Positions 1,261-56,782 of a stretch of 64,000 nt of DNA are shown piece by piece. Below the pieces are notes generated by a model. That model saw only the letters and a program-made list of their open reading frames with translations, searched no databases and was not told where the DNA came from. The DNA is from Tubulanus polymorphus (taxonomy: Eukaryota; Animalia; Nemertea): positions 14,453,653 to 14,517,652 of the forward strand of contig NC_134028.1 in NCBI RefSeq assembly GCF_964204645.1, given 5' to 3'. The position numbers were made by a program, and so were the translations under genes. Numbering within the stretch: the stretch's first letter is position 1; every line of letters begins with the position of its first letter.

Positions 1261-4200
1261 TTAACACGTTAGGATTCTTTTCATTATCTCATTCTCTTTT
1301 GTTTCTTCTCTTTTAAATTTTAAATATTCATCTAAATTACAACCATAAGCAACTGTATAAATTCCATCATCTAAAATATATCTTTTATCATCAAATGGGT
1401 TTAGACTTATCTTTTCAATTTCTTCAATAAACATTTCATGATCTTCAGATCTTAAACATCGCATCTTATGTTTTCTAACTTCTTCATTGAATATACAATT
1501 GATGTAATCTTTGAAATGAATATTCTTTTCTACTACACTTTTGGTTATTCCTTTTAACTTTTTAGCTTCATGTTCTTTAGTTTTATATGAATACATTTTA
1601 GATCTAATACCGATGAATTCAATCATTTCTTCACTACCTAATTCATCTTTGAATTTACAAGGAACTTTTATTATCATTGCTAAACAATTCATGATCTTTA
1701 GGATAATTACTGAAATCAAAATGATGTTTTAATGTTTTTAAATCATCAGTTATGTTATCAGTTTTTATCTTTAATATGTAACCGTCGGTATCAAAATATA
1801 ATATTTCTATATGTTTTTCTCCAAAAAGTGGTTGTAATACATTATAATAGAATTCATACATTAGTAATTTTGATAATCATAAAACTGAAGCGCCAACATA
1901 GATTGGTTTATTAAATTTCATTGATGTTCTTCTCATCTTAACTGCAGCTAAATTTTCATCAAATATTCTGTTACCAATGAACTTAGGATATGATTGTAAA
2001 TACCTTATCCTTTTACCATTACTAACTAACTCAATATCATTTCTATTTCTAATATTTTCATCACAAGTCTTACCATAGAATGCATTATTCATTAACTTGA
2101 AGAAATCTTTCTCGAAATCAGTTTTAGCTTTAGTTCTCTGTTTGGTGTTAAAATCTATATATTTTTCTAACCACTTAGATTGGCTAAATGAAATATCTCT
2201 ATGTACTTTTTTTAGAACCATTCCCTGATTCAAATAAAACTTTAACATTCTATAATGTACTACATAATTATATTTATCTTCTTGAGTTACCATTAACTTT
2301 TCTGTATGAATATGATTTTCGGGTTTAATTCTTTTTTGGTAATTTGATAATTCTTCATGAGTTACAGTTTTATGTTCGGGACAGTAAGCTAGATTTCTAG
2401 ATTTAAATTTAATATGTTCAGGATATTCTAAATCTACAACAAAAAAATAACCAGTATCTGAATCATCTGCAATATCTAGAATTCTTTTCTTCCAATCAAA
2501 TTTATCATTATTTTCATTCTGTAAAACTTCAGTTAATTCAAATACTCCATAAGGATGTGGTTCCATCATTGCCCAACCATACAAATTATTTGCATCTATA
2601 TATAATAACTAATATCCAGGGTTATCATTTACATTGAAATATCTATCACCTAATACACCTGAAACTCCTCCTCTTATAGATTTTTCAAATGATAGTAATT
2701 GATCTATATTTGTTAACAAATCCATTTTTATATCTGTAAATTTTAAACCACAATCCCATGTTAATCCTGGACTTGAATAACAATGACAAGGATCAATTTG
2801 AAAATATTTTAGGTTTACATCTCTAAACCTTTCGAATATATCGGTTAATAATAATACATCTGATTTTAAATATAAATCTACTAATTGCCCATGATTTTCT
2901 ATTTTGAAATGATTCCAAATATTCAATGTTCTATTATAGACTTTATCTTTAACATATTCATTTTTTAATTCATCATAGAATTGTTCTTTCAATAATTCAG
3001 TTATATTGAAATCATTATGTGATTTATGAAATGAATATGGAATTGCTCCTTTATATCTCATTAATTGAAAATCATCATTATTTGGGTAGTGTTATTTTAA
3101 TGTTTTTAATTCATCATCAACTAATGATTTTGATAAGTTATCTAATGAACTATTTAAAAATCTATATGAATCTATAAATCTTAGGCAACCAAATTGGAAT
3201 GATATATAATTCTCAGATGTTTTAGCTAACATTCTAAATTTATAAGTTGGTATTTTATCTTATGATCTATTTGAATTTAATCTTTCTATTTCATTATTAA
3301 TTTCTTCTATTTTATGGCATAACTGTTTGATGAATAAATGTGCATCATACCCTGATAGATTATGAAATATAACTGGTACAAAATTAATTTTCTTAGCTTG
3401 TAAGTTACAATTCTCATGTGCAGCGCCTCTTAACTTTCCGTTCAAATGATCATGGTCTCTTACTTTTTTATCTCTAAAATTAAATATCTTTTCACAATAA
3501 TAACATTTATCTGCAAACTCAAATGCTTCTTTATCTTCTTCTGTCATTATAATTTCTATATTTGTATTCAATAATTTACTAAATCTTATTTCATATTCAA
3601 TTAATAAGTCACAAAAATGATTGATAACATTTTCATTTCTATAATGATAATATTCACTTTCAATTAGTTCTGGGTAATCAGATTTAATATATAACCCGAA
3701 AGCCGCAGCTGATTGATGAATCTTTTTAATAGTATTTGTTTTTGGTGGTTCTTCTGAAAAATCATTTTCATTAGAATTTAATTTCTTTCTTTTATAATAT
3801 ATTTCTTTTCTATCTTGATCAGTTAATTCTTTATTTAATGATTCAAAATCTCCATATATAACAAATGGAACTTTATTTTTGTAATCATATTTTTTGAATT
3901 CTAATATTTTATCCTTTTCATTTGGTAAAACTAATTTACAATAATCATGATTTTCACATAATTGTTTATGATTTAATAATGTACTTTCATTACTGAATTT
4001 ATGTAAACATTTTCTACATAGATATATCTTATTATGGTGATCACTTTCTGTTCTAAAGAATAAATCTATTTGTTTAATCCACATATAATGATTCTCATAA
4101 TATAATATATCTATAACATCGTTTGAATCATAATCTTTTGATAGGTATAAAGGTTCTAATGTATAATGTTTTATATTGTTACCTTTTGTATTTGGTAATT

Positions 4201-5305
4201 TGATTAAATCAAATAAATTCATCTTTATATTATTAACTCTTTCTATTTTTGGGATGTTTTTAATTATAACAGGATACTTATCTATCTTATAATTATTTTC
4301 AAATGGTTTATAATTTGTTAATCTATAAGTATGTTTATTATAATCTTCAAGTGGGTGTAAGCAACTTATTATAGCCCATAGAAAACATTTATCATCTTCA
4401 TTTTGTACATTTATAACAGCATTAGTTTTAAATGGTAGTTTAATATAACTCGATGCTTCAATATCTGGTTCTTTATAATATGATACTTTATTTTCATCAA
4501 TTGGTTTTGATTTAGTTAACTTATTATATTTTGTGCTATAAACATGTAAAGTCATAAATATTATTTCATCAAATATTAAACCAGATCCTTCAAAATATTT
4601 CTCTTCTATTTTAGTTTTTACTTCATTATAACATTTATCTAATTTATCATCTATATGTTGTTTATATATAATATGTTGTGAATGAGAATTTATATTATAT
4701 ATTGGTTTATCTTCAGATTTTATAAACTTTACTTTAACTGATATACTAATTTTAGGGTATTCAACATCAGTTATTATTTTTATAATATTTTTCATATTTT
4801 CTAAATGTTTTTTATTTTCTTCTAATGTTTTTCTTTTATGAAATTTAAACTCCATAGCTGCTGGACCAATATCACTTTTAAATGCTTCGGTTATCTCTAT
4901 ATCTTTTTTATTATCTTATGAATTAATATATTTACTTACATCTTCCATGTATTGTCTTTTATTGTTTAATTTATTTTTTATGCTTTTAATTGTCTTCTGT
5001 TTCTTAACATTATCTTTATCAAAATAATCTTCACCTAAAATAACATTATTCATATTTCTAATATGACTTTTAGATTTTAAATGTTCATTATAATATCTTT
5101 TATCACTGAATGATTGATTACATGTATCACATTTATATATTTCTTTTTCATTCATTAATTCATCTAATTTAGTTTCTAATATATCATCTTTATATTCTAG
5201 TTTCAATTTATTCTCTAAATGTGTTTTAGTTTTATTGTGTCTTGCTTTTTGGGATTTATCTATATTGATATTACATGTTGGGCAGTAGTACTTATTTGCT
5301 TCCAT
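1261..5305 (-). pseudogene. polB: Protein-primed family B DNA polymerase (pPolB) with N-terminal zinc fingers, vOTU-like and EndoVII-like domains; several stops/frameshifts
   Basis: Exo motifs YGDFES, FHNLSGYD, YLKSDV; KLMNNAFYGKT; YFDTDG (normally DTDS); INVQNEDDKCFLWAI; CYYC...VRDHDHLNGK.RGAAHENCN; split over ORFs 4916-5305, 3260-4855, 2609-3061, 1877-2584, 1655-1861, 1261-1719. Confidence 0.95.
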
Positions 5306-5535: not shown

Positions 5536-5801
5536 AGTAATAGGGGTAATAGGCTTTCAGGTTAAAGGTTGAACGGGCGGGTGAGTAAAAATGAAAAACA
5601 TGAAAATAATAACAATTTCTACTTGAATTAGGAGTGAAACTCATAAAAATGAAAAATAAATTCGAGCGTGTGAGAATTTATTTTTCATTTTTATGAGTTT
5701 CGCGAGTAATTCAAGTAGAAATTGTTATTATTTTCACGTTTTTCATTTTTACGAGCTCGACCGTTCGACCTTTGGCCTGAAAGCCTATTACCCCTATTAC
5801 T
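5536..5801. repeat. Terminal fold-back palindrome of E1 (266 bp, type A)
   Basis: AGTAATAGGGGTAATAGGCTTTCAGG at 5536 pairs with CCTGAAAGCCTATTACCCCTATTACT ending 5801; apex AATTCGAGCGTGTGAGAATT. Confidence 0.95.
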
Positions 5802-12471: not shown

Positions 12472-12740
12472 AGTAATAGGGAATATCTTGTTTCATACCA
12501 AAGGTCGAAAGGTCGAGCTCACAAAAAATGAAAAATATGAAAATAATAACAATTTCTATTTGAATTAGTAGCGAAACTCATATAAAATGAAAAATAATTC
12601 TCGCACACTCGAATTTATTTTTCATTTTATATGAGTTTCACTCCTAATTCAAATAGAAATTATTATTATTTTCATATTTTTCATTTTTTACTCACTAGCC
12701 CTTTCAACCTTTGATATGAAACAAGATATTCCCTATTACT
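12472..12740. repeat. Left terminal palindrome of E2 (269 bp, type A)
   Basis: AGTAATAGGGAATATCTTGTTTCATA ... TATGAAACAAGATATTCCCTATTACT. Confidence 0.95.
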
Positions 12741-17774: not shown

Positions 17775-17789
17775 CTATTTATATATCTA

Positions 17790-20743: not shown

Positions 20744-21458
20744 TTACTTCTTGAGTGTTAGATAATTACTTTCTGAATCACTTTCATCATCACTCTCCAA
20801 TTCACTATCATACCCCATCAATTTTTTCAAATTCTCTACCGAATTTTCTTCTTTAAATTCTTTATTATTTTTGTACTTATTCTTCACCCTTTTTACTGTA
20901 TCTTCATAAATAATTGGTTTATTGATATACTTATTAGTCATCTCAACTATATCTTTATTTTCTGATTTAAGTTTCATAGAATCTTTATTATCAATGCGCT
21001 TTCCTGTATTTTCATTATTATCTTTATTAGTGTTTGCTCCTAATATTTCATTTACAGTGTTTGATCCTAATATTTCATTAGCATCAGTTAAATCTAATTC
21101 ATCTTTATTGGGTGTTGCTAATAAAAAATCTTCATATAATTCTTTACCATTTACTTTTTTATTTGAAACAAATTTGGTAACATATCTAAATGGGTGTTCT
21201 ATAAATTCTCTTAAACCAACACGTTCTATTACATTAGTAATATGTGAATTTGTATTCATATGTTTATTCCAATTTGATGGAGCGTTTGAAAATTCACCTT
21301 TACAATAATCACAATAATTTCTATTTTCACTTACATTTAATATTATTGCATTATTATATGTAGAAGGTATTACATTATTTGATGTAGAGGGTATTACATT
21401 ATTAGATGTAGTAGGTATTACATTATTAGATGTAGTAGGTATTACATTATTAGATGTA
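20744..21458 (-). pseudogene. 3' part of repeat/zinc-finger gene split by E3 insertion
   Basis: Homologous to 18359-19228; 5' part resumes at 34813-35006. Confidence 0.85.
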
Positions 21459-21862
21459 AGTAATAGGGGTAATGGGCTTTCAGGCCAAAGGTCGAACGGT
21501 CGAGCTCATTAAAAAACAAAACATTAAAAGTAATTAAAAACTATAATATATTTTCAAAACCGTGTGCATTTTATATTAAAACTAATTATTTATTCTAAGA
21601 TATCAATAATCTAAAAAGCATATTGTATTAAATCAATTGGTCGCTCCACTTCGCTACCGCTCCGCTCCGCGACCAATTGATTTATTTACAATACACAAAT
21701 TCATATAATCAAATATATTTTAATAATAATAATTATTCTATTATTCAACTGAAATACACACGGTTATGAAAATATATTATAGTTTTAAATTACTTTTAAT
21801 ATTTGTTATTAATGAACTCGACCATTCAACCTTTAACTTGAAAGCCCATTACCCCTATTACT
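21459..21862. repeat. Terminal palindrome of E3 (404 bp, type B)
   Basis: AGTAATAGGGGTAATGGGCTTTCA ... TGAAAGCCCATTACCCCTATTACT; apical stem AATCAATTGGTCGC/GCGACCAATTGATT. Confidence 0.95.
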
Positions 21863-21942
21863 CTTAAAATATTCATATAAATGAATAACATTTAAATCAT
21901 TGAACTTCTAAAATCAATTTTAATAAAAAATTTAGTATTAAA

Positions 21943-24900
21943 ATGGAAGCAAATAAGTACTACTGTCCAACATGTAATATCAATATAGATAAATCCCAAA
22001 AAGCAAGACACAATAAAACTAAAACACATTCAGAGAATAAATTGAAAATAGAATATAAAGATGATATATTAGAAACTAAATTAGAAGAATTAAAGAATGA
22101 AAAAGAAACATACACATGTGATACATGTAATCAATCATTCAGTGATAAAAGATATTATAAAGAACATTAAAAATCTAAAAGTCATATAAGAAATAAGAAT
22201 AATGATATTTTAGGTGAAGATTATTTTGATGAAGATAATGATAAGAAACCGAAGACAATTAAAAGCATAAAAAATAAATTAAACAATAAAAGACCATACA
22301 TGGAAGATGTAAGAAATTATATTAATTCATTAGATAATAAAAAAGATATAGAGATAACCGAAGCATTTAAAAGTGATATTGGCCCAGCAGCTATCGAGTT
22401 TAAATTTCATAAAGGAAAAACATTAGAAGAAAATAAAAAACATTTGGGAAAATATGAAAGAAATAATAAAAATAATAACTGATGTTGAATATCCTAAAAT
22501 TAGTATATCAGTTAAAGTCAAATTCATAAAATCTGAAGATAAACCAATATATAATATAAATTCTCATTCACAACATATTATATCTAAACAACATATAGAT
22601 GATAGATTAGATAAATGTTATAATGAAGTAAAAACTAAAATAGAAGAGAAATATTTTGAAGGATCTGGTTTAATATTTGATGAAATAATATTTATGACTT
22701 TACATGTTTATAACACAAAATATAATAAGTTAACTAAATCAAAACCAATAGATGAAAATAATGTATCATATTATAAAGAACCAGATATTGAAGCATCGAG
22801 TTATATTAAACTACCATTTAAAACTAATGCTGTAATAAATGTACAAAATGAAGATGATAAATGTTTTCTATGGGCTATAATAAGTTGTTTACACCCAGTT
22901 GAAGATTATAATAAACATACTTATAGATTAACAAATTATAAACTATTTGAAAATAATTATAAGATAGATAAGTATCCTGTTATAATTAAAGACATCCCAA
23001 AAATAGAAAGAGATAATAATTTAAGAATAAATGTATTTGATTTAATCAAATTACCAAATACAAAAGGTAACAACATAAAACATTATACATTAGAACCTTT
23101 ATATCTATCAAAAGATTATGATTCAAATGGTGTTATAGATATATTATATTATGAGAATCATTATATGTGGATTAAACAAATAGATTTATTTTTTAAATCA
23201 GAAAATGATCACCATAAAATATATCTTTGTAGAAAATGTTTACATAGATTCAGTAATGAAAGTACATTATTAAATCATAAACAATTATGTGAAAATCATG
23301 AGTTATTGTAAATTAGTTTTACCAAATGAAAAAGATAAAATATTAGAATTCAAAAAATATGATTACAAAAATAAAGTACCATTTGTAATATATGGAGATT
23401 TTGAATCATTAAATAAAGAATTAACTGATCAAGATAAAAAAGAAATATATTATAAAAGAAAGAAATTAAATTCTAATGAAAATGATTTTTCTGAAGAACC
23501 ACCAAAAACAAATACTATTAAAAAGATTCATCAATCAGCTGCAGCTTTCGGGTTATACATTAAATCTGATTACCCAGAACTAATTGAAAGTGAATATTAT
23601 AATTATAGAAATGAAAATGTTATCAATCATTTTTGTGACTTATTAATTGAATATGAAATAAGATTTAGTAAATTATTGAATACATATATAGAAATTATAA
23701 TGACAGAAAAAGATAAAGAAGAATTTGTGTTTGCAGGTAAATGTTATTATTGTGAAAAGATATTTAATTATAAAGATAAAAAAGTAAGAGATCATGACCA
23801 TTTGAATGGTAAATTTAGAGGTGCAGCGCATGAGGCTTGCAATTTACAAGCCAAAAAAGTAAATTTTGTCCCCATTATATTTCACAATTTATCGGGGTAT
23901 GATGCACATTTATTCATCAAACAGTTATGCCATAAAATAGAAGAAATCAATAATGAAATAGAAAGATTAAATTCAAATAGATCAAAAGATAAAATACCAA
24001 CTTATAAATTTAGAATGTTAGCTAAAACATCTGAGAATTATATATCATTCCAATTTGGTTGCCTAAGATTTATAGATTCATATAGATTTTTAAATAGTTC
24101 ATTAGATAACTTATCAAAATCATTAGTTGATGATGAATTAAAGATATTCAAAGAAAATGACCCAAATAATGATGATTTTCAATTAATGAGATATAAAGGA
24201 GCAATTCCATATTCTTTCTATAAAAATCATAATGATTTTAACATAACTGAATTATTAAAAGAACAATTCTATGATGAATTAAAAAATGAATATGTTAAAG
24301 ATGAAGTATATAATAGAACATTGAATATTTGGAATCATTTCAAAATAGAAAATCATGGGCAATTAGTAGATTTATATTTAAAATCAGATGTATTATTATT
24401 AACCGATAAGAAAGAATTCTAGATATTGCAGATGATTCAGATACTGGTTACTTCTTTGTTGTAGACTTAGAATATCCTGAACATATTAAATTTAAATCTA
24501 GAAATCTAGCTTACTGTCCCGAACATAAAACTGTAACTCATGAAGAATTATCAAGTTATCAAAAAAGAATTAAACCCGAAAATCATATTCATACAGAAAA
24601 GTTAATGGTAACTCAAGAAGATAAATATAATTATGTAGTACATTATAGAATGTTAAAGTTTTATCTAAATCAAGGAATGGTTCTAAAAAAAGTACATAGA
24701 TATATTTCATTTAGTCAATCTAAGTGGTTAGAAAAATATATAGATTTTAACACCAAACAGAGAACTAAAGCTAAAACTGATTTCGAGAAAGATTTCTTCA
24801 AGTTAATGAATAATGCATTCTATGGTAAGACTTGTGAAAATATTAGAAATAGAAATGATATTGAGTTAGTTAGTAATGGTAAAAGGATAAGGCATTAACA

Positions 24901-25643
24901 ATCATATCCTAAGTTCATTGGTAACAGAATATTTGATGAAAATTTAGCCGCAGTTAAAATGAGAAGAACTTCTATGAAATTTAATAAACCAATCTATGTT
25001 GGCGCTTCAGTTTTAGAATTATCAAAATTACTAATGTATGAATTCTATTATAATGTATTACAACCACTTTTTGGAGAAAAACATATAGAAATATTATATT
25101 TTGATACCGATTCTTACATATTAAAGATAAAAACTGATAACATAACAGATGATTTAAAAACATTAAAACATCATTTTGATTTTAGTAATTATCCTAAAAA
25201 TCATGAATTGTTTAGCAATGATAATATAAAAGTTCCCGGTAAATTCAAAGATGAATTAGGTGGTGAAGAAATGATTGAATTCATTGGTATTAGATCTAAA
25301 ATGTATTCATATAAAACTAAAGCTCATGAAGCTAAAAAGTTAAAAGGAATAACCAAAAGTGTAGTAGAAAAGAATATTCATTTCAAAGATTATATCAATT
25401 GTATATTCAATGAAGAAGTTAGAAAACATAAGATGAGATGTTTAAGATCTGAAGATCATGAAATGTTTATTGAAGAAATTGAAAAGATAAGTCTAAACCC
25501 ATTTGATGATAAAAGATATATTTTAGATGATGGAATTTGGAATTCATACGGTTGCTTATGGTTGTAATTTAGATGAATACTTAAAATTTAAAAGAGAAGA
25601 AAAAAAAGAGAACGAGATAATGAAAAGAATTCTAACGTGTTAA
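21943..25643 (+). pseudogene. polB: pPolB, fragmented; ~350 bp deletion at ~24409 removes DANNLY motif
   Basis: Same motifs as 1261-5305; YFDTDS present in 24959-25567. Confidence 0.95.
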
Positions 25644-25672
25644 TCAAATTTTAATAAAAATATGTTATTAAA

Positions 25673-27641: not shown

Positions 27642-27657
27642 TTATATAATTAAAAAA

Positions 27658-28092: not shown

Positions 28093-28111
28093 TTATTTAG
28101 CAAAAAAATTA

Positions 28112-28534
28112 CTAATTAGTAAACTTATAAGCAACAAATATAACAACAACAGTTCCGCCTAAAATCCAAATTATTTCATATTTCTGTTGTTCTTTACTTG
28201 GGGTATAATAATCTGATAATTTAGGTTTGTATAGATGTAATTTTTCTTTATTGGTTACCGCGTTATATAAACTCATTGCATCATCAACTGTTTGAAAATC
28301 TCTATGTGCAATCTTCTGATCATATAATTCTTTGTTAATATAATCCATATAGTTTTGCCTCTTTTCTCTATATTCTTCTGCTGCTTTATTATATTTCTCT
28401 AATGCTAAGTTATGTCTTCTTTGTTCTCCTAATGAACTATTTTTATCAATATGCTTAAATAAATATCCACCTCCAGTAAATGCTAAAGCGTTAACAATTG
28501 CCGATCCTATAATAGTTATAATTGCAGAAGCCAT
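28112..28534 (-). CDS. Small protein with amphipathic N-terminus, coiled coil and C-terminal TM
   Basis: MASAIITIIGSAIVNALAFTGG...RRHNLALE; homolog at 39641-40063. Confidence 0.7.
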   Translation of the reverse strand: MASAIITIIGSAIVNALAFTGGGYLFKHIDKNSSLGEQRRHNLALEKYNKAAEEYREKRQNYMDYINKELYDQKIAHRDFQTVDDAMSLYNAVTNKEKLHLYKPKLSDYYTPSKEQQKYEIIWILGGTVVVIFVAYKFTN

Positions 28535-28558
28535 TTATTTAGCAAAAAAATTATGCAT

Positions 28559-28780
28559 TTATATGGGAGGAATATATTTTTGTTTTTCCAAATAATCAAT
28601 AGTTAAATTAGATAAAGTAACTGCTAACGTTAATTTTAAAGTATCATTTATATCAAATCTATCATCATTAACACTTCCCATTTTGAATACTTTTTTTAAT
28701 ACCATTGAATAACCAACAGTTCCAACTGATAGTAATGCGCCATTATATAATCCAGTTATTATCCACTTATTATCACTCAT
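28559..28780 (-). CDS. 73 aa hydrophobic protein
   Basis: Conserved with 40088-40309. Confidence 0.65.
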   Translation of the reverse strand: MSDNKWIITGLYNGALLSVGTVGYSMVLKKVFKMGSVNDDRFDINDTLKLTLAVTLSNLTIDYLEKQKYIPPI

Positions 28781-29137
28781 TTATTTATCAAAAAAATTAC
28801 TATCATCAAAATATTTAGTTATCTTATTTATGATTATTTCAACATTTATTTCATTACTAGTTTCATTTGTATATATTTCAATTATTATTTTTTTAATATC
28901 ATCGATGATAAAATCTTCATCTAATTCATAAAATCTTAAAGATTCTCTAATTAAATTAGTAATCTTTTCTACATTTAAAGTTTCTTTATCTATTGTTTTT
29001 TCAAACTCAAATGTTGTTTCATTAGAAAATGTGATATTTTTGATATGTGTAATTACATCATTAACGTTAAATTTCATTTCTTTCTCAAGTTTAAAATCAA
29101 ATCCAAAACATATACTCGGTCCAACAGTTATATTCAT
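28781..29137 (-). CDS. 118 aa acidic hypothetical protein
   Basis: Conserved with 40317-40667. Confidence 0.65.
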   Translation of the reverse strand: MNITVGPSICFGFDFKLEKEMKFNVNDVITHIKNITFSNETTFEFEKTIDKETLNVEKITNLIRESLRFYELDEDFIIDDIKKIIIEIYTNETSNEINVEIIINKITKYFDDSNFFDK

Positions 29138-29282
29138 TTATATAGTGAAAAAAATAAAAATAAATTGGTTGAAAATTATATGAATAATATTTATTTTAAA
29201 AAAAGGAGGTTTTAAGTATTAAATACATTAATACGTATTTAATACGTATTTAATACGTATTAGATAGATAGATATATAAATT

Positions 29283-29894
29283 TTATTTTATAAATTTATA
29301 TTCATAGGGAAATTGTAGTCTCAGTAATAATTTTGAACCTTTATTATTCTTTATTTTATTCATGTATTCATCATGTAATTCAGTAGGTATAATTTGATTT
29401 TCTTCCAATGATTGTTGCATAGATTTTTTATCTTTGTTATAAAATAAAACTAGAAATCTAATGTTTTCTCTAAAGTCTTTAACAATTGAATTATATTTTT
29501 GATTTAAAACCCAAGTTGTTATCCCGAAATGTCTCCCAGAGAAAGCTAAATAACATAACTCACTTTCTCTCACTTTTGAATCATGTAAATTTGCGCAATC
29601 ATCTATAATAAATAATGTATTTGATCCTTTATAAGTATCAATTGCTATTTTTATACAATTATCTAAATTTTCTTTCACTGTTTTAGGATCTAATATAATA
29701 AACTTTTTCATCTTAACTATATCTCTATTATATGTTTTATTCATTTCATAAGTAGGACAGAATAATATTATATTATCAAAATGATTCTTATAAATAGTTT
29801 CTAACAAGTCTAATATGAAATGTGTTTTACCACAATTGGTTACTCCAGTAACTAAAATATTATGCGGTTCAAATATAAATAAATCTTTATTCAT
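29283..29894 (-). CDS. A32/FtsK-like packaging ATPase, intact
   Basis: GVTNCGKT, FIIDD, SGRH. Confidence 0.9.
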   Translation of the reverse strand: MNKDLFIFEPHNILVTGVTNCGKTHFILDLLETIYKNHFDNIILFCPTYEMNKTYNRDIVKMKKFIILDPKTVKENLDNCIKIAIDTYKGSNTLFIIDDCANLHDSKVRESELCYLAFSGRHFGITTWVLNQKYNSIVKDFRENIRFLVLFYNKDKKSMQQSLEENQIIPTELHDEYMNKIKNNKGSKLLLRLQFPYEYKFIK

Positions 29895-30997
29895 TTATTC
29901 TTTTAATTTTACTAGATAAAATCCATTCATTAAATTTATCATCATATCCTTTATATTTCACCAAAGAATCCTTTTTTCCTTTAAGAGTTTTTGTTTTCAA
30001 TACTTTTTCTATTTTGTATTCTATTTTATCTGGATTTGGTACAAGTGATAATTCTTGTTCATAGAAATAACCTAATATTTCTTCATCTTTTAGATCTTCT
30101 AATTTATAAACAAAAGGTTTAGTTAATATTATCTTTTTAATCTTGAATATTTCTTCAGTAAAATTTGGAGTATAACCTTTATGAAATGTTTTTCTATATT
30201 TAGATATTCTAACGTGTTGTCTAATTTTGAATCTAGGTTCACCGAAATCATGTGTAACAAACGCACCATATAAATTATTCCAAACTATTTCCGAATTATC
30301 TTCTTTTCTAGCTTGTATAGGTTTCATATTTATAGAACTATGTTTAGAATTATTATAACCTTTCACTAAATCATCTAATATATAGATATATTTATATGTT
30401 TCATTAGCAGTAAAATATTTCCACATTCTAGTTTTCAATGTTTTATTAAATCTTTCTATAATAGATGCTTTTTTGTCTGAGTGTGTTGAAAAATAGTCTA
30501 CATCGTTATCAGATAATAGCTTTTTAAAATGTTTGTTATAAAATTCCTTACCTTCATCAAATTGTATCTTATCTGGAATAGCTTCTTTAAATATTGATTT
30601 AAAAGCATTTGTAACTTCTATTCCAGTTTTATTTTTGATTGGAATTGACCACGCGTATCGACTGAATATGTCTATAACATTCAGTATCCAGAAATATCCT
30701 TTGTTGTATTCTTCTAAGTTCTTCATGTCAATTAAATCTGCTTGCCATTGTTGATCAATATGAAACCATAACTTTTCTCGTTAAATAAGTTTTATCCATT
30801 TTCTTGTGGATTCGATACGTTGGTTGATTTTGTAACCATGATTTTAATTCACTATATTTTATATCACCATCTGGGTGCCATACGGCACCATTTTCATTAT
30901 CAGATTTAATTTTATTCCATAATTCTGAAACGTTAGAATATGATACTTCACTTTCTGGGTTATAATATAAATCTCTTAAATATTATTCTTTTTTCAT
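29887..30997 (-). pseudogene. int: rve integrase with chromodomain, disrupted N-terminus
   Basis: ORF 29887-30726 carries FDEGKEF, IERFNKTLK and chromodomain. Confidence 0.93.
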
Positions 30998-31003
30998 CTT
31001 CTT

Positions 31004-31375
31004 TTAATCCATTAATAATAATTTAGATTTAGTTTCAATGGCTTTATGATTTGACTTATTTTCTGGTATAATATGTTTCCGATTGTCATTGGAATCATAT
31101 TTATCATCAGATTTGAATTTTGATTTATATATTACGCCGGATAATATAATAATTGTGATTAACCCAATTGTAATATATAAGTAATTATTTCTTCCACTAT
31201 TAGAAGAATAAGATGGATTATCATTCGAATCAATATGAGATAATTTCTGTGATTCATTTATATCAGTTAATTTCTTTTTCTTAGCTTTTTTTAATTCTGA
31301 AGATCTTTTACCTAATTCTCTTGCCCATTTAATTTGTTTCTCGGATCTAGCCTTTTTCTTAACTCCATCACTCAT
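31004..31375 (-). CDS. Basic N-terminus single-TM protein
   Basis: 123 aa; TM YITIGLITIIILSGVIY. Confidence 0.7.
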   Translation of the reverse strand: MSDGVKKKARSEKQIKWARELGKRSSELKKAKKKKLTDINESQKLSHIDSNDNPSYSSNSGRNNYLYITIGLITIIILSGVIYKSKFKSDDKYDSNDNRKHIIPENKSNHKAIETKSKLLLMD

Positions 31376-31970
31376 TTATTTTAGTTAATTTTTGTTCTGA
31401 TTCATTTTCTGTTCCGACGTTTGGTTGTAGTACATCTGTTTCGTTCTTACCTGCTTTATATTCCATAGGCTTGATATTCGAAAATGTTATGACGCCAGTA
31501 GAAATTAATGTCATAACCGATCCTAATTAAAATGAAGCATAACCAACCCATTTTTGTAATTCAGTCATAACTAAATAGTCATTTTTTAAATCACTATATA
31601 ATTTATTTTCATCATCAATTGGTATTAACTGGTTACATAACTTAGAATAACATTTGACAGTACCATTCGAAATAGAATCATTTATTTTAGCTAATCTTGC
31701 TTCTTCATAAATCTTAAAATATTTTATTACTTTATCTGGTTTCATAGAGTCTAGTTCTTGAAAAGTAATGATTCTATTTAAAAACTCCTTAGATTTCCCG
31801 CCAGCAATTTATTATTCAAGATGATGCTTAAAATATAAATAGTATTCATAATCTATATTGTTATTAACTTGAATAGAATTAGAAACAACTGTTTCTTTAT
31901 TATCACTAATACCCAAATCATCTAATGTCTTTTCAATATCAATACTATTCTTATTAGATTTCTTTGACAT
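31368..31970 (-). pseudogene. Conserved hypothetical Polinton protein
   Basis: Homologous to 15108-15715. Confidence 0.7.
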
Positions 31971-32250
31971 TTATATTAGAGAAATTTAATAAGAAAAATA
32001 TTATAAGTATTATGAAATGATACTAGCTAGTTAAAGCTAGAGAATTCTAGTATTAGTTATTGTTTTTTAGTATTTTTTATTTGTGATATCAAGTATTCTT
32101 TTTTGAAAAGAAAATATTAAAAATTAAAATAGATATAATAGATAGTTGAAGGTATGTAATTTTTATTATATTTTATTTAAATTAGGATTTAGATTATCTC
32201 ACTACTTTTGTTTATCTATTAGGAGCAGTGATTATAACTGTCCAGATAAG

Positions 32251-32925
32251 TCATTTCGGATCCTTGATATCAAATTCCTCAACATATTGTTCATTATTTG
32301 GATCATTGTTCCATAATTCAACAAATGTCTTTGCTTTATCCAGTTGATCTAAATATAATTTCATATCTAGTTTATTAGATTTAATTATGTTTTCCTTCTT
32401 TTCTAAAGGCCTTAAATTTTTCCAACTCCAAATAAGTTTTTTATTGTATTCATCATTCATGTTAAATTTAGATATTGGTAACACGTGATCAATATGGTAA
32501 TAATCCCCATAATTATCTATATTCATTTTATCATCGAATTGAAATATAATCCATGATTTGAGAAATTCATCTGAACAACCCAACAAATTAGATAATGTTT
32601 CTGAATGTGTTTCTTTGTTGAATAATTGTGTTAATCTAGACCCTAAGCATTGTTTCAATCTAAAATTAAGATCTGTTTGATATCTTCCTCTCATATATTC
32701 TGTCATATAATCATTGTAAGCTTCTCTATTATCTTCTCGATATTGTTTGGTATATAGTTTAGTACAAGTTTTACAGCAATATTGAAAACCATCTTTGCTA
32801 ATCTTACGCTTACTAAATTCTGTTAATGATTTATCTAATTCACATTTAGAACACTTCTTGTAATATATATTTATAACGCCAGTGTTATTTGTAATATTGA
32901 TAATTTGTGGTTGTTCTGGTTCCAT
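32251..32925 (-). CDS. HNH endonuclease-like protein, intact
   Basis: CSKC, CCKTC, HIDHVLP...NLRPL...N. Confidence 0.8.
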   Translation of the reverse strand: MEPEQPQIINITNNTGVINIYYKKCSKCELDKSLTEFSKRKISKDGFQYCCKTCTKLYTKQYREDNREAYNDYMTEYMRGRYQTDLNFRLKQCLGSRLTQLFNKETHSETLSNLLGCSDEFLKSWIIFQFDDKMNIDNYGDYYHIDHVLPISKFNMNDEYNKKLIWSWKNLRPLEKKENIIKSNKLDMKLYLDQLDKAKTFVELWNNDPNNEQYVEEFDIKDPK

Positions 32926-33044
32926 TTATTATACGTATTTTTTTACTAAATTTGTTAATAATTTTAGAATCCTTCTCCATTTCTTCGACCAACGTCATCC
33001 TTTTTCATTCCTCGCCGCTTTTGATAAGTTGTTTCGATTCCTTG

Positions 33045-33410
33045 ATATCTAAATCATACCAGTTACAATACCCGCGTCACATGCGGACATACAGGCGCGC
33101 TTTTGCTTAATACGCATGCGTTAATCATAATTATATATTCATTCTATAAATTCTGTAAAATAGAAACAACCAAACACAGAAAATATCAAAACGTGTTCGC
33201 ATTAGGCAAACCGCGCATTCATGCGCGGTTTTGCTCAATGCGCATGCGTTAATCATAATTATATATTCATTATGTAAATAGAAACAACCGACATCAAATA
33301 TCTAAATCATACCACTGGGCAAAACCGCGCATTCGTGCGCGGTTTTGATCAATGCGCATGCGTTAATCATAATTATATTTACATTCTAGAAATAGAAACG
33401 ACCGAACATA
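33045..33410. repeat. Tandem ~115-130 bp hairpin repeats (about 3 units)
   Basis: Units contain TGCGCATGCG and AAACCGCGCATTCATGCGCGGTTT. Confidence 0.85.
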
Positions 33411-34075
33411 AAAATTCACCAAACAGATTTACACAATACATTATACAAGTTGTTCAGTCATTTCTTCCAATACATCATTTGACTTCTATAAATACAATTT
33501 ATAATTACAAACATTTTTTCAATTGCTGGTAAATATTTAACTACATCAATAAATGTTAAACTTAATCATTGGAGTCTTAATGTTTTTGAAATTCTTATAT
33601 AGTTTCTTCGTCGATCTTTTGGCGATTCTATTGGTTCGATATCCATTGCTGTTGATTCCTCAGTCAGAAAGAGTATCTTGAGTTTCTCTATCACTTCTTG
33701 ATTCGTATGGTGTTTTATTAATCTAAAAGATATTAGCGGCAACTCTAGCCATCTAAAAGATATACTAAATACACTTAAATATATCTAAAGGTTTCATATT
33801 TAATAGCCTTAATAACTACAACAAACAGTACTTACATTTAGATTTATAATTGTAAACTATAAACTCCTAATTTCGTTTCGAAAGATAGAATATCCTGAGC
33901 ACAATATTACAGCGCCTTTTCATTTCTTGCCACGTCATCTGGTTCCGGTTCTAGCGTGTTCTCTCTCTGCACGTTTGTAATAATGAGTCATAAGTCTCGG
34001 CGTCATAGTAACAGCTGTAACAGCTGTGAATTTATAGATTTATTCCATAGCTCTGTACATTGAATGTATATAGGC

Positions 34076-34327
34076 TCAAATAGAATTATGTTCTAGTATA
34101 AACATCAGATCCTTGATATCAAATTCCTCAACGTATTGTTCATTATTTGGATCATTATTCCATAATTCAATAAATTTCTTTCCCTTTGTTAACTGTTCTG
34201 AATATAACTGTAAATATTCTAGTTTCAATTTATTCTCTGAATGTGTTTTAGTTTTATTGTGTCTTGCTTTTTGGGATTTATCTATATTGATATTACATGT
34301 TGGACAGTAGTACTTATTTGCTTCCAT
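34076..34327 (-). CDS. Small chimeric ZnF/HNH-tail ORF
   Basis: Homolog of 12820-13047. Confidence 0.6.
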   Translation of the reverse strand: MEANKYYCPTCNINIDKSQKARHNKTKTHSENKLKLEYLQLYSEQLTKGKKFIELWNNDPNNEQYVEEFDIKDLMFILEHNSI

Positions 34328-34407
34328 TTTAATACTAAATTTTTTATTAAAATTGATTTTAGAAGTTCAATGATTTAAATGTTATTCATTTATATGAATA
34401 TTTTAAG

Positions 34408-34812
34408 AGTAATAGGGGTAATGGGCTTTCAAGTTAAAGGTTGAATGGTCGAGTTCATTAATAACAAATATTAAAAGTAATTTAAAACTATAATATATTT
34501 TCATAACCGTGTGTATTTCAGTTGAATAATAGAATAATTATTATTATTAAAATATATTTGATTATATGAATTTGTGTATTGTAAATAAATCAATTGGTCG
34601 TGGAGCGGAGCGGTAGCGAAGTGGAGCGACCAATTGATTTAATACAATATGCTTTTTAGATTATTGATATCTTAGAATAAATATTTAGTTTTAATATAAA
34701 ATGCACACGGTTATGAAAATATATTATAGTTTTTAATTACTTTTAATGTTTTGTTTTTTTAATGAGCTCGACCGTTCGACCTTTGGCCTGAAAGCCCATT
34801 ACCCCTATTACT
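34408..34812. repeat. Terminal palindrome of E3 (405 bp, type B)
   Basis: Reverse complement of 21459-21862. Confidence 0.95.
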
Positions 34813-35006
34813 GATGTAGAAGGTATTACATTATTATCAATTACATTACTTTTATTATTATCGATTTCTATTAGTTTAGTTTTATAAATTTTGAAAATAG
34901 GATCAAATATCAAAGCTATATTACAAGGTATTACATAATATAAACCATCATTATTTTCATGTGTATCGATGTATGGAATATGTTTATATACTTTACCTCC
35001 TTCCAT
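34813..35006 (-). pseudogene. 5' part of repeat/zinc-finger gene of E2
   Basis: MEGGKVYKHIPY... up to VIPSTS, cut by E3. Confidence 0.85.
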
Positions 35007-35038
35007 TTATTATATAAATTTTTATTAAAGTTAAAATT

Positions 35039-36284
35039 TTAATACATAACACTATTCAATTGAGAATTTACAATATTTAATTGCGCGTCAGATATAATAT
35101 AAATGTGCATTTTGAAATTTTTGATTCCTTTATTCTTTGTCATGAATAATTGTATTCCATCTTTAGTGTTTTGTAATTTTTTTCCAGAACCATGTAATGA
35201 ATTATCCTCTGTTGTTCTAAAATATAACCATAATGCATATTTATTGCCGGTATAATAATCAATTTGATTAATATTACAATTTTCAGATGATTTCACTTTT
35301 TCATTCATAAAATGTTTTCTAATTTCTGGCCATTGATCTATCATTCTCATTCCTTGACAAAATATTTTATTTGCTATTCCTTCGATAGTTATTTCTACTT
35401 TTGTTATTTCAGGATTATAATAATTATCAACATTTATTGCGCCATTAGTATATGTTGCAATGGTAAAAAATATTAATATACCTTTAATAGATCTTCTTGG
35501 GAAGTTAATATTCTCATTAATTATTTCATCATTTGCATTAATAGTTACGGTTTTAAATTTATCAATATAATCATATAATAATGAAAATCCTTGATTGTAT
35601 TTAGTATGAATTATACTTGAAATATTCATCAGTTACTGTATCATATTCTAAACATATATTCGATAATTTATAACTCATGTCTTTATTAACGCTAGATATT
35701 ACAATTTCATTAACAGGAGCAAATGTTATTTCGAATATAACATCTTCTTGAATTGCGTATTTATATAAAGGTGCATTGTCATTTATCAATTCAAAGTCTA
35801 ATGGAATTTTATATTTGCTTCCATATATACTTTTTATCAATTTATCTACAGCATTAGTTAATATTGCGCTATTAGCTTCTGATCTTAATTTATTTTGGTT
35901 TTCTGATTGGATTCCTTTAAATATCATAATATTTCTATTTTCTTTAGTTAACCATAAATCTTTATAATGCATAAATAAATTATAATCATCTAATGAGAAA
36001 ACTGTTTCTGGTCCAATCTTTATAATTAATTTTTTAATCAAATATCTTCCAACATTATCAACAACATAATTATTATTATTACCAGTCACTTTTATATCGG
36101 CTGATAAATAAATACTATTTGGAACATAAAAAGTATTTTGTGTTAATCTAGGAATTCTAACAATTAAAGTTTCATCAGGATTAATATTAGAAGGGTTATG
36201 AGTAATTATATGATGTGATCTCTCTGCTTTAATAGCATTAGATATTCTATGATTCTTAGAAGGATTGATATAACTCCCACTCAT
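35039..36284 (-). pseudogene. Major capsid protein (double jelly-roll/hexon-like), one frameshift
   Basis: HNPSNINPDETLIVRIPRL, NVGR..IKKL, YKLSNICLEYD, PRRSIKGIL, YALW..FRT..DN.LHGSG, YIISDAQLNI; ORFs 35601-36284 and 35039-35629; pattern resembles invertebrate Polinton MCPs. Confidence 0.75.
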
Positions 36285-41804: not shown

Positions 41805-41833
41805 TTATAATACATATTTTTATTAAAATTTGA

Positions 41834-45599: not shown

Positions 45600-45867
45600 A
45601 GTAATAGGGAATATCTTATTTCATATCAAAGGTTGAAAGGGCTAGTGAGTAAAAAATGAAAAATATGAAAATAATAATAATTTCTATTTGAATTAGGAGT
45701 GAAACTCATATAAAATGAAAAATAATTTCGAGTGTGCGAGAATTATTTTTCATTTTATATGAGTTTCGCTACTAATTCAAATAGAAATTGTTATTATTTT
45801 CATATTTTTCATTTTTTTGAGCTCGACCTTTCGACCTTTGGTATGAAACAAGATATTCCCTATTACT
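45600..45867. repeat. Right terminal palindrome of E2 (268 bp, type A)
   Basis: Reverse complement of 12472-12740; apex CGAGTGTGCGAG. Confidence 0.95.
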
Positions 45868-46935: not shown

Positions 46936-47335
46936 AGTAATAGGGGTTTAGTTGTTTCAGGCCAAAGGTCGAACGGTCGAGTTCATTAAAAAACAAAACA
47001 TTAAAAGTAATTAAAAACTATAATATATTTTCATAACCGTGTGCATTTTATATTAAAAACTAAATATTTATTCTAAGATATCAATAATTTAAAAAGCATA
47101 TTGTATTAAATCAATTGGTCGCTCCACTTCGCTACCGCTCCGCGACCAATTGATTTATTTACAATACACAAATTCATATAATCAAATATATTCAAATAAT
47201 AATAATTATTCTATTGTTCAATTGAAATACACACGGTTATGAAAATATATTATAGTTTTTAATTACTTTTAATATTTGTTATTAATGAACTCGACCATTC
47301 AACCTTTAACCTGAAACAACTAAACCCCTATTACT
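46936..47335. repeat. Terminal palindrome of E4 (400 bp, type B)
   Basis: AGTAATAGGGGTTTAGTTGTTTCAGG ... CCTGAAACAACTAAACCCCTATTACT. Confidence 0.95.
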
Positions 47336-52391: not shown

Positions 52392-54388
52392 GGGATGGTT
52401 TCATCCCAACTGGGAAAAGTGATTTGAAACATTATCTTGTAGCAGGAGGGTTAATATTGGCTGCGCTTTGCTTGTACTATGAGAATATTAGAAAGGATTT
52501 GATGAATGAAAATAATAAATTGAGTAAGAAGTTAAAGAAGTTAAATGGAAACAATCACAGAAATAAAAAGAATAAAAAAGTTAATTTAGAAAATGATATT
52601 GAGGATTAAAACAGCGCCTTTTAATTTAATTCATTCTATATATCTTAACTATAAAAATGAGTGAAAATAAGGTATTAGAAATATTACATCTAATATATAA
52701 TAGACCGCTTTTGCTTCTGCTCATGCGCCAATTACATAATTTATTCTGTAAACTACGACATTCAAACATAGAACAGTAACCGATCAATACAGAACAGCCG
52801 TCGCCATCAACAACGGCCGAACGACTAATGTACGCACATCTGCAATTCCGGCATATATAATACAACATGATGAAACAGCTTCAGTCTCTTGAGTTGAAAT
52901 ATCTATAATTTCGGACTCCATATCCATCCATCTTCACCTTCTTGATTCAATGGTCTTCATTTTGTTATCTAAAAGATATCTAGCGTAGAACAATAATTAA
53001 CTTGAAGTTGAACCAGGTTTATACTAAAATTTAGCTTGTATCTCACTTCATTACAACGCGTAGTACTCCAAACTCAGAGTGATATTGTTAAATATAGATT
53101 GATAAACTTGAACTTATTTAAAGTAATCCCTTTCGGATGTCTTATACTCACTGCGTTGTTGTGAAAATGAATTACTGTACTTAAATATGTTAAAAGGTTT
53201 CATATTTAGTAACCCCTTTTCCCTACTTCATAATATATGTACTTACATTTAGATTTAGACCCGTAAACTGTAAACTGTAAACTCCTCATTGCGTTTCGAG
53301 AGAGAATATCCTGTGAGTTCTGTATATACCATCTATTCAGTTCGGGCGCGCCTTCCAGAATGATCTAATGCGTCTGCGGTTTATTATGACTCAACATCGA
53401 GGCCTTGTCTGGTGTCATGGAAACGCTTGACAGCTGTGAATTTATAGGCTTAATGAAATTAATTCTTTACAATTGAAATGTAATAGATGTTTTAGTAAAC
53501 AAGAGCTATGTATTATATACATACAAGGCTCAAATAGAGTTGTCGGTTTTCTAACCACTGATTAAAACCTCAGAATGCGGTTGATTCTGCGAGCTACTAT
53601 TCCATAATTCAACAAAAGTCTTTGCTTTAACCAGTTGATCTAAATATAACATTAAATCTAGTTTATTAGATTTATTTATATTTTCCTTCTTTTCTAAAGG
53701 TCTTAAATTTCTCCAGCTCCAGATTAGCTTCTAATTATAATCATCACTCATGTCAAATTTAGAAATCGGCAACACGTGTTTAATATGAAAGTATTCACCA
53801 TAATTATCTATATTCATTTTATCATCGAATTGATATATTATCCATGATTTGAGAAATCCATCTGAACAACCTAACAAATTAGATAGTGTTTCTGAATGTG
53901 TTTCTTTGTTGAATAACTGTGTTAATCTAGACCTTAAACATTGTTTCATTTTAAAATTAAGATCTGTTTTATATTTTTCTCTCTCATATATTCTGTCATA
54001 TAATCATTATAAGCTTCTCTATTATCTGCTCGATATTGCTTAGTATATAATTTAATACAAGTTTTGCAGCAATATTGAAAACCATCGTTGCTAATCTTAC
54101 GCTTACTAAATTCTGTTATAGCTAATCTATCTAATTCACATTTAGAACACTTTTATAGTATATATTTATAACACCAGTGTTATTTGTAATATTGATAGTT
54201 TGTGATTGTTCTGGTTCCATTTTAATATCAAATTTTTTTACTAAATTGATTTTAGAAGTTATTCATTTATATGTTATTCATATAGGGAATATGGTGGTTC
54301 ATATCAAAGGTTGAAGGGGCGAGTGAGTAAAAATGAAAAAATGAATTCGAGCGTGCGAGAATTTATTTTTTCATTTTTTATGAGCTCG
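52392..54388 (-). mobile_element. Divergent Polinton left-end fragment E5
   Basis: Shortened type A palindrome (54282-54388), HNH pseudogene, spliced-cassette homolog. Confidence 0.75.
53560..54220 (-). pseudogene. HNH endonuclease-like pseudogene
   Basis: MEPEQSQTINITNNTG start at 54220; frameshifts and stops. Confidence 0.8.
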
Positions 54389-56782
54389 GTAAATAGTCCT
54401 TTTTTATCTAGTGTTGTGATTCTCAGTAAATTGTGATTTTATATATCTACCCTTGTTTACAACATTATTTACTATATTTCAGCCCCAAGATAACAATTAT
54501 GTGTTACTGTCAATTATTCATACCAAACCTTTTGCATGACTGCAATTACTACATTCAGCATGTCTATGTATGTAACTAAATTAATCCAATGTCAACAAAT
54601 TAATAAAGGTAAATATTCTTATGTAATCAAAAATTTCGCAATTTTCACTGGCTTGTGCTTATATATCCATTATCTTTTATATCAATTTAACAATTATTCA
54701 TTATATTTCAGTCAAAGGAGAACAAGTTATGTGATTCCATAAATTATTCACATAAAACCATCTTAGTCAAACATGACAATTCATATCCATCTGTGAGCTA
54801 TATGAATACAATGTCAACAAACTAATAAATGTAAATAACCTTATCTAATCCTAAATGTTGATAATTTTTACTTTATTGTATGTTTCATATATCTACATAT
54901 CTATCAGCAAAGTACAATTTCTTATTGCTTTCACCATATATTTTGCAGTATAAATCATAATGGCTTCATACTATGCTCCTATGACCCAGGTGCACAAATA
55001 AGTTTCACCACTGCATTCATAAACAGACATGTTTTACCAAAGTTTGACTCATGTTAATAGACTATAATTCAGGTAATTTCAATTGTTTACTTTATTTTTT
55101 ATTAATATGCAATTGTACATATGAATGTTTTCCCTATCATTGCACTATATTTGCAGAATCCACAATTTATATATAAGTACCAATAGTCATTTGCCTGAAT
55201 CGACTTCAAATCAGGTATGTTGTCACAATTTATTCTTGAATTAATTTTCTTTCAATACAACCTTCAATACATAAATAACACTTCAAAATGAATTTTTGTA
55301 TTTAACTGATGATTCTTCTTTTTTACAGCAATACAGCAATATAATTTTTAAAAAGGCTACTTCATCTTCCGTAATGAGTTTGATATTCTCCAATCCTTGG
55401 ATTTTTTATACAATTCTATTACAATAATAGTGAATGTTGTGTAACAAAATTGGCTAAATGCAAAGTGTCTTTCAGTCATCAATCTGGGTCAATGTGCATA
55501 TTCCATGGACACGTATAGGCCTTCTTTTGGCCCTCTAATCAGAATTTCAGTTACACTATAAAACTATTTCATTTTATTACTTCTACTAATTATAACCATT
55601 TTTACACAAAATTCTTATTGTTCAAAAGTATCACATGTTTCCAGTACATTTATCTTTTCAACAAGCTTATTATGTAAACTGCTATTACTTTCGCCAAATA
55701 TAATATATCCACTATTGACAAAAAAGTTGCCATAGCAATGTATCTTAATTTTTCTTTGTGAAACTAACCCACCTGATTTGTATAGATCTTATGACAATAA
55801 TAGCTATGAACATTTGAAAATTTGTCTGTTATTACAACAAACTTTGTCAATGTGTTGCTATGGAAACTGTTTTATTGATTTCACATTTTCCTCGGAGGCT
55901 TCAGTTGCACTATACCCTTCTTTGTATAAACAGGCCCTAATGTTTAAAAAAACAAATTTTATACGTATTACCCATTAATAATTAATCCACAAACGCACAA
56001 TTAAGAAATTAAAAGACACTTCTATGTTATTCTGATATTATTATATATATTATAGTATTATAATATTAATAAATATCTCATTTTATAGATGTAACTTAAA
56101 TGACTTTCTTATTTAAATTTTCTTATTGTTTATATCAACTTGGAAATGTCACATGTATCTTTCTTGATACTGGAACCCCATCCATACTATAAGCTTTTAT
56201 CTACACCGAATGTTAGCACACTACCCAAACTATTTCTACTATATCGCCCTACACTGCTGCCACATATCGGTGGCAAAATTTATCAGTTTTATTCACAAAC
56301 ATTGAGCGATGGTTATGAAGGGGCCATCTCAGGTATATTTTAACCTTTCTATTCGTTGCCACTCAACGAATACTTCTCAACTTCAACGTTATCAAAATCA
56401 TAAACGTTCAATGATGCTTGAAATCCAAACGATTTACAATCATTGTAAACGTTTACCGTCAATAAATCCTACTTTGAATTGTGTCCCTTTGCCATGCGGT
56501 GACGGTCCCTATGAGCCTATCTCGCCCACCACCGCATTGATAGACGCCATTTTGTCAGTACCATCGAAGTCGTCATCGGACATATAATTGGTTAGTACGA
56601 CTTCACAATTTATTTGTTAAGGGTAATGTCATCGTATATGATTGAAATTAAATACAACTATGGTGTCAATCTTGTTAATCCCCTCGTTATTTTTCTACAG
56701 ACACTGCATTATCGTTTTAACAATACCAACAAACAACGCTGCCCGTCGCGTCGCACGTGTAAGTAAGTATCGGCAATGTTGT

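Follow-up and report, generated by a model that had tools for sequence, protein, structure and literature searches.

The DNA at the ends of the Polintons in this 64-kb window (the window being the whole stretch of DNA analysed here) can be folded into long hairpins, and the evidence supports folding of one particular strand, that with its 3′ end at the terminus of the element. That a specific single strand and not a double-stranded cruciform is the structure in question was the core of the original prediction, and it is supported by covariation and fixed wobbles in the stem, by mismatch counts on the two strands, by folding energies in 6 of 6 complete copies, and by controls in which CpG decay and deamination failed to account for the pattern. 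We infer that the fold is functional rather than a repair by-product of the folding strand.

What kind of element carries such a hairpin? Several copies of an AT-rich element lie in the window, and the element encodes a pPolB containing an Endonuclease VII insert, an rve integrase with a chromodomain, and an A32-type ATPase. E3, which bears 34408-34812 at its right end, is a Polinton/Maverick (Table 1). TIRs in the window are 99% identical over 599 bp and 98% identical over 463 bp, and the element ends read AGTAAT...ATTACT (5′-AG end), which differs by one base from the (AGT)2//(ACT)2 given in the available text of PMC8097293. Homologues of the pPolB are annotated as DNA_pol_B_2, those with named hosts being in insect genomes, and the closest fold matches of its N-terminal half are adintovirus/MELD PolB proteins. 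The host is probably an animal. The pPolB copies in the window are fragmented into pieces. All ORFs of E3 with at least 100 aa point inward, and its right TIR carries the first pPolB codons (ATG at 34327, - strand); at 34076-34327 this end opens a short ORF that reads inward and begins as pPolB does at its N-terminus. The segment 35039-36284, a putative double jelly-roll capsid region, gave no Pfam match, and none of the 19 ORFs scanned out of 64 listed matched a HUH/Rep nickase family in Pfam. The integrase had no relatives among viral contigs, the pPolB had no match among phage records, and metagenome contigs contained 0 matches to a DNA pattern of the hairpin.

A 24-bp tandem repeat within an element ORF is found at 18833-19091 and again at 21296-21506, and E3 sits inside one copy of it; thus, E3 is nested in E2. 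E2 also has an internal duplication (17037-18106 vs 19629-20739), and, where a rearrangement has joined two segments (19391-19642), a fold-back duplication whose arms are near-perfect, which has no preferred strand by folding energy and looks like a template switch. Degenerate tandem repeats occupy 59557-60313 in the flanking DNA.

Table 1. Features of the Polintons and their terminal hairpins in the window (for hairpins, the strand is the one that is 3′-terminal)
Feature	Position	Strand	Remarks
E3 Polinton	21459-34812		nested in E2; TIRs and 6-bp TSD
E2	12472-45867		contains E3; TSD ATTGCT
E3 right TIR	34214..34812		599 bp, 99% identity with left TIR
E3 left TIR	21459..22056
Left 6-bp TSD of E3	21453..21458	+	GATGTA
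Right 6-bp TSD of E3	34813..34818	+
Type B terminal hairpin, E3 right end	34408..34812	+
Type B terminal hairpin, E3 left end	21459..21862	-
Type A terminal hairpin, E1 right end	5536..5801	+	three tandem G·A sites
Type A terminal hairpin, E2 left end	12472..12740	-
Type A terminal hairpin, E2 right end	45600..45867	+
Type B terminal hairpin, E5 left end	46936..47335	-
Short, truncated type A hairpin	54280..54389	+	tandem G·A apex; distal outer arm missing
Inner-arm T residues pairing with outer-arm G	34434..34454	+
Type B purine-rich apex	34602..34627	+	GCGGAGC (34605), GCGGTAGC (34610) and near-match GCGAAGT (34616), overlapping
E1 pPolB fragment	3260..4855	-	predicted TP domain, vOTU motif, Endonuclease VII insert
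E3 pPolB	22454..25567	+	several ORF pieces, inward from left TIR
E3 rve integrase and chromodomain	29887..30726	-	PF00665, E 9e-8
E3 A32-type packaging ATPase	29283..29894	-	PF04665, E 3.5e-12, from a profile scan of the near-identical copy 19760-20371

Of the 599 bp of E3's right TIR, the hairpin at 34408-34812 takes up the outer 405, and the fold-backs in general occupy the outer 58-68% of each TIR. There are 6 complete hairpins in the window, of type A (266-269 nt) or type B (400-405 nt), and one fragment, all of them at element ends. These go back to four insertions and a fragment; those at 12472 and 45600 share a TSD, so that they are the two ends of one insertion, E2, and the number of independent units is reduced accordingly. 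Copies were counted within the window and in raw reads. The short form at 54280-54389 is devoid of the middle stem segment of the 266-nt type A form, and the long type A form looks like the short one with a segment added between two G·A sites. Folding is far beyond what is obtained with shuffled sequences (-116 vs -27 and -21 kcal/mol, 30 shuffles each), and on the 3′-terminal strand the last base pairs flush with the first base of the inner arm, as a 3′ end folding onto its template in the manner of parvoviruses is expected to do. In type B, neither strand pairs well in the middle of the stem. The outer arm was said to read always CCAAAGGTCGAA and the inner arm T(T/C)AAAGGTTGAA, and indeed every complete hairpin (6 of 6) has the former and every inner arm (7 of 7) the latter. 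The G·A sites TGAG/CGAG at 5582/5752-5755 and GGAG/CGAG at 5631/5703 are also there; the second GAG/GAG site is tandem only in the 5536-5801 copy, and the copies at 12472 and 45600 have one G·A pair there. Apex sequences of both types A and B are as described, except that the 46936 copy (type B) is short of one GGAGC unit.

In the right hairpin of E3, whose + strand is the 3′-terminal one, T·G pairs are found at 34434/34786, 34435/34785, 34442/34778, 34446/34774 and 34454/34766. The original prediction held that T-G pairs occur on the 3′-terminal strand only. A strong excess is real, with 18 distinct G·T sites against 4 A·C sites on that strand (binomial p 0.004; read by hand, several of them in the loosely paired type B middle and dependent on the alignment), but the rule is not absolute: A·C stands at 34432/34788 (in both TIRs of E3), at 45618/45849, at 5600/5737, and once in the loosely paired type B middle. 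Sites that recur in the two TIRs of one element or in more than one element, which therefore predate insertion, are G·T rather than A·C at 13:2 (p 0.007), those common to at least two elements at 10:1 (p 0.012), and those of a single TIR at 5:2 (p 0.45). It is to be noted that these p values overstate independence, as there are four insertions plus a fragment, the sites are inherited, and columns 11-19 perhaps reflect a few block changes. The per-strand count by which the prediction was to be checked is thus asymmetric in the window copies (18:4, 13:2 and 10:1). In excerpts of PMC8163305, G·T and tandem G·A are given as stable in DNA and A·C as weak. With DNA parameters the 3′-terminal strand is more stable than its complement by 8.6-12.5 kcal/mol in 6 of 6 copies, where ViennaRNA treats tandem G·A as unpaired, so that these energies say nothing on sheared pairs.

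How the stem has changed is also informative. Among its first 47 columns, 12 change on both arms together, with at least two Watson-Crick pair types among the six copies, and deeper indels in one arm of the type A stem have their counterpart in the other. T·G is kept at columns 27 and 35 in every copy (6 of 6), although the neighbouring columns 25, 26 and 39 have changed. The wobbling T lies almost always on the inner arm: it is found in 5 of 9 columns with G on the outer arm and 0 of 16 with G on the inner arm in the 34408-34812 copy (Fisher p 0.002), and in 4 of 8 and 1 of 18, respectively, in the 5536 copy (Fisher p 0.02). C is more numerous on the outer arm, and therefore simple deamination of the whole strand would strike the outer arm, too. 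On the same strand in the adjacent pPolB DNA (three copies), C>T was counted at 15/264 and G>A at 13/191; further in (936-2487, 24411-25970 and 41507-43059), on what is the antisense strand of three pPolB copies, G>A is above C>T (15/153 vs 6/227, p 0.005). The 164 columns of the TIR interior show few changes.

Is the hairpin present in both orientations, flip and flop? Raw WGS reads carrying the same species label, from about 12% of run X7 (1.9 Gb read), were aligned to the hairpin at two levels of likeness. At 85%, over the TIR interior and inner arm, depth steps from 2409 to 3670 at the arm start, 1120 reads have mixed flanks, and C is found in 50% of reads at 34442, a share which this layout gives under flip/flop or fixed orientation alike. 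The layout at 96% on 5400-5590 shuts out C-type arms; there, depth runs smoothly over the arm boundary (351, 390, 415) with no step, no group of loose ends at the arm start is among the groups listed, and C replaces the diagnostic T in 4 of 377 reads, this 1% being a minimum, as the 96% threshold works against C-type arms. Since there is no step and C is rare, the T-type arms are inner arms, and neither flip/flop nor a common stand-alone hairpin element is seen. Thus, the orientation of the hairpin is fixed, with sensitivity to a minority above about one tenth. Inversion of the parvovirus type was seen neither in the reads nor in the window, where 7 of 7 inner arms are T-type, and a hairpin alone with host DNA on both sides, as a MITE or stand-alone foldback should be, was not found, the T-type arms being joined to the TIR interior. 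A depth of about 2400 together with the 1120 mixed-flank reads likely corresponds to many insertions, hundreds or more.

The apexes are of two designs. That of type A is stem-GA-G(C/T)-GT-G(C/T)-GA-stem. That of type B is made of mini-hairpin motifs: GCGNNAGC occurs at 5 sites in the 64 kb, 3 of which are type B apexes on the 3′-terminal strand, and GCGNAGC at 9 sites, of which 4 are. Such GCGNAGC/GCGNNAGC mini-hairpins are, in excerpts of PMC13037366, unusually stable as DNA and located at single-stranded origins; their RNA forms are far less stable, with a Tm of 39 C as against 76.5 C for DNA. A motif scan of 182 loci and the window, which recovered two of the four type A copies in the window, found the tandem G·A cap with unrelated stems on the 3′-terminal strand at L017 and at L109/L180; a stem-GA-GC-loop-GC-GA-stem apex was seen by eye at L069, and the apex of L179 is exactly GCGAAGC. 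An apex motif, either tandem G·A or mini-hairpin, is on the 3′-terminal strand in 4 of 9 hairpins of related elements.

How general is the feature? A hairpin of at least 80 nt lies near pPolB in 7 of 54 non-redundant related loci having at least 800 bases upstream, and most related Polintons seem to manage without a terminal hairpin, or their end lies elsewhere. In the nine related-element hairpins, whose termini were inferred from position and end motif without TSDs and several of which look decayed, the excess of G·T over A·C is weak (32:22, p 0.22), that of G·A over C·T is 30:14 (p 0.02), and the pooled ratio is 62:36 (p 0.011). Four clean hairpins give 13:0 and the five others 49:36, a split made after seeing the data and therefore carrying no test. 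Energy favours the 3′-terminal strand in 7 of the nine; L003 and L069 slightly favour the other strand, and single hairpins run against the trend in mismatches (A·C 6 vs G·T 5 in L069, C·T 6 vs G·A 2 in L125). The polymerases of L017 and L109 are related. Dropped before counting were L031 (end undefined, locally duplicated), L076 and L028 (subterminal), L084 and L096 (repeat-built), L117, L119, L164, L109 8055-8222 and L179 18081-18340 (not placed at the pPolB-side end), L180 (same family as L109), and the foldbacks of the G002 family (L133, L147, L149-L151, L161, L176 and L177). In this Polinton-like family the foldbacks are subterminal and built of repeated short palindromic units, which occur in both orientations and vary in length among copies; they show no consistent strand bias. 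The near-perfect terminal hairpin at L179 12255-12428 stands beside a pPolB of another class without Endonuclease VII insert, which weakens a link between the hairpin and this domain. This pPolB is also encoded by 36 loci (L107-L142) in prokaryotic genome bins, and G002 has 140 matches; these are probably contigs of eukaryotic origin in the bins. Taken together, the strand-specific feature recurs in related elements but is not universal, and outside the family of the window the G·A signal is clearer than that of G·T.

What, then, may the folded strand be used for? Protein-primed polymerases template on a 3′ end, and DDE integrases act on 3′ ends; thus, the favoured strand is the one that the enzymes of the element would handle. 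In the pPolB of 3260-4855, the predicted order of strands and helices is as in Polinton TPs, with Ser92 beside a Gly in the loop between the second helix (65-87) and the last strand (94-106), the assignment being a comparison of predicted secondary structure with the description in the available text of 10.1101/2024.03.18.585575 and involving no superposition on a TP model. A vOTU motif (Cys157/His257) follows the TP domain, so protein priming appears to be retained in these predictions. We give about an even chance to the idea that the hairpin is a local fold-back origin on a single-stranded intermediate, at which TP-pPolB starts. Strand-displacement synthesis would leave a single strand of the element of 13-20 kb, and the 3′ end of this displaced or excised strand might fold locally instead of pairing with the far TIR. 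The fold-back would rebuild a duplex end at the 3′ terminus, from which TP-pPolB could start the complementary strand; as it would copy first the outer arm, then the apex and then the inner arm, orientation and mismatches should stay unchanged. The outer arm may be held by sequence recognition and the inner arm may only need to pair, so that T opposite G and sheared G·A would be tolerated and A opposite C would not. The other strand pairs worse, and therefore a cruciform formed by the inserted double-stranded element would be destabilised by these mismatches. The fold might also offer the integrase or the Endonuclease VII domain a branched substrate at the junction with host DNA.

It might even be possible, although we consider it doubtful, that some Polintons have an obligatory single-stranded stage and a hybrid telomere, in which a parvovirus-like hairpin of single orientation, capped by sheared G·A or a mini-hairpin, is combined with protein priming and the folded 3′ strand is cut from the chromosome by the integrase or the nuclease insert of the polymerase (copy-out). 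If so, the nuclease inserts of pPolB, Endonuclease VII here and VSR in marine lineages, could be adapted to ends that are branched or contain mismatches. T·G mismatches are where VSR nicks. A VSR insert is described in the literature for pPolBs of marine nematodes and molluscs, and may connect to wobble-bearing ends.

Could the asymmetry arise without selection on the structure? A palindrome that had once arisen might be refreshed by fold-back copying, with G·T and sheared G·A escaping repair, or with C on a displaced inner arm being deaminated; the strand would be real and its structure unselected. We regard this as unlikely, even though it needs no new function, expects the homogenisation of the arms, and has beside it the separate fold-back duplication at 19391-19642, the accidental annealing given as an alternative in the available text of 10.64898/2026.07.28.741278, and the absence of the hairpin from most related loci. 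Against it, the T·G of columns 27 and 35 has persisted though columns 25, 26 and 39 changed on both arms, and deamination does not produce apexes of the tandem G·A or mini-hairpin kind, which are found again on stems that are unrelated. Even this reading requires that the 3′-terminal strand folds.

Quite unlikely, in our view, is self-priming like that of parvoviruses, where the paired 3′-OH is extended into a hairpin-closed duplex, to be resolved by a nuclease such as the Endonuclease VII domain. The flush pairing of the 3′ end with a template running inward would suit it, the Endonuclease VII residues are invariant in 29 sequences, the same model is proposed for virophage/PLV palindromes in the available text of 10.64898/2026.07.28.741278, and excerpts of PMC1185569 describe parvovirus left ends of single orientation. 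Nevertheless, the flip/flop expected from simple terminal resolution is absent, a HUH/Rep family match is lacking among the ORFs scanned, and the same preprint ties palindromes to non-pPolB elements. TP and vOTU motifs are intact, which makes a folded origin for protein priming likelier than either self-priming or a repair by-product.

The structure could also be formed in RNA, as a regulatory hairpin or source of small RNA in an outward or antisense transcript, where G·U and tandem G·A are ordinary pairs and the 3′-terminal strand is the more stable by about 17-37 kcal/mol with RNA parameters. This is very unlikely: the ORFs of E3 are all inward, so that mRNA would carry the other, less stable strand, the stem stops exactly at the DNA terminus, and no Rfam match at E<=1 was found in 33900-35200. 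DNA is favoured because the favoured strand is antisense to the inward genes and the apex motifs are, by the melting temperatures given above, stabler as DNA. Highly improbable is a signal for packaging or capsid assembly, read as mismatched folded DNA with no role in initiation; mismatches in the vaccinia hairpin are needed for virion maturation and not for DNA synthesis (excerpts of PMC8956199), and the element does encode an A32-type ATPase, but poxvirus telomeres are covalently closed and flip/flop, unlike the fixed orientation and open TIRs with TSDs found here. Finally, a palindrome that was once perfect might have acquired its mismatches by CpG deamination when already inserted, which the original prediction named as what would refute it, or by a C>T bias that is general and strand-specific. 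This can practically be dismissed, although six shared G·T sites are in CpG context and the T·G of a single TIR at 34601 fits late CpG decay, as decay of duplex DNA should yield TG and CA equally, the G·T sites common to TIRs and elements are older than insertion, columns 27, 28, 62, 79 and 107 are non-CpG, the host flanks are not CpG-depleted (o/e 0.83 and 0.95) and the hairpins are CpG-rich (1.56), and neighbouring pPolB DNA has no C>T excess.

A folded origin for protein priming on a single-stranded intermediate, if correct, would bear on how these elements replicate. The exit of a Polinton from the chromosome and a protein-primed start without a free end are still a model, which rests on a proposed single-stranded intermediate; the asymmetry of mismatches in a terminal fold-back would be a footprint of that intermediate in the sequence, and names its strand. 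It also defines short substrates, namely the two strands of one hairpin and variants of its wobbles and apex, for the biochemistry of TP-pPolB and integrase.

How does the arrangement compare with known systems? In adenovirus, the two distant ITRs of a displaced single strand pair with each other and so restore a double-stranded origin at which TP-primed synthesis can start; the difference from that panhandle is that each end here can fold locally. With Polinton/Maverick elements of adintovirus type, as defined in the available text of PMC8097293 and 10.1101/2024.03.18.585575, the present ones share pPolB with TP and vOTU, rve integrase, A32 ATPase, TIRs, 6-bp TSD and the 5′-AG end, and they differ in that the outer TIR is a fold-back with strand-biased mismatches. 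In the literature searched, openly available main texts, no description was found of Polinton ends with strand-biased mismatches or a fixed orientation: the words hairpin and palindrome are absent from the main text of PMC8097293, PMC8502044 and 10.1101/2023.08.22.554363 as available, and from the searched passages of PMC12220804, 10.64898/2026.10.13.758929 has in its available text one mention of a palindromic repeat in a figure legend, and excerpts of PMC11296320 mention hairpins for poxvirus telomeres. Bidnavirus ITRs are stated in the available part of PMC4061559 not to form parvovirus-like hairpins. Parvovirus telomeres themselves (left end of MVM/LuIII) resemble the present hairpins in being imperfect terminal fold-backs with a mismatch bubble and, at some ends, one orientation (excerpts of PMC1185569); parvoviruses differ in that they self-prime with a HUH nickase, of which none was detected here among 19 ORFs, while protein priming appears to be retained. 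Mini-hairpin DNAs of phage G4, RSF1010-type ssiA and N4 (excerpts of PMC13037366) have the same GCGNAGC/GCGNNAGC motifs in folded single-stranded DNA; there they are read by primase or RNA polymerase in bacteria. Comparable in position are the terminal palindromes of Halocafeteria virophages and PLVs, described with a hairpin-priming model in the available text of 10.64898/2026.07.28.741278, the section 7 of which does not mention mismatch type, strand or orientation. They, too, lie inside the TIR and adjoin the TSD, and a hairpin-based model of replication is given for them, but they are 52 nt in the figured subtype as compared with 266-405 nt here, and they go preferentially with non-pPolB replicases rather than with TP-pPolB. 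Thus, the hairpins of this window extend terminal palindromes from non-pPolB virophages and PLVs to elements that encode pPolB.
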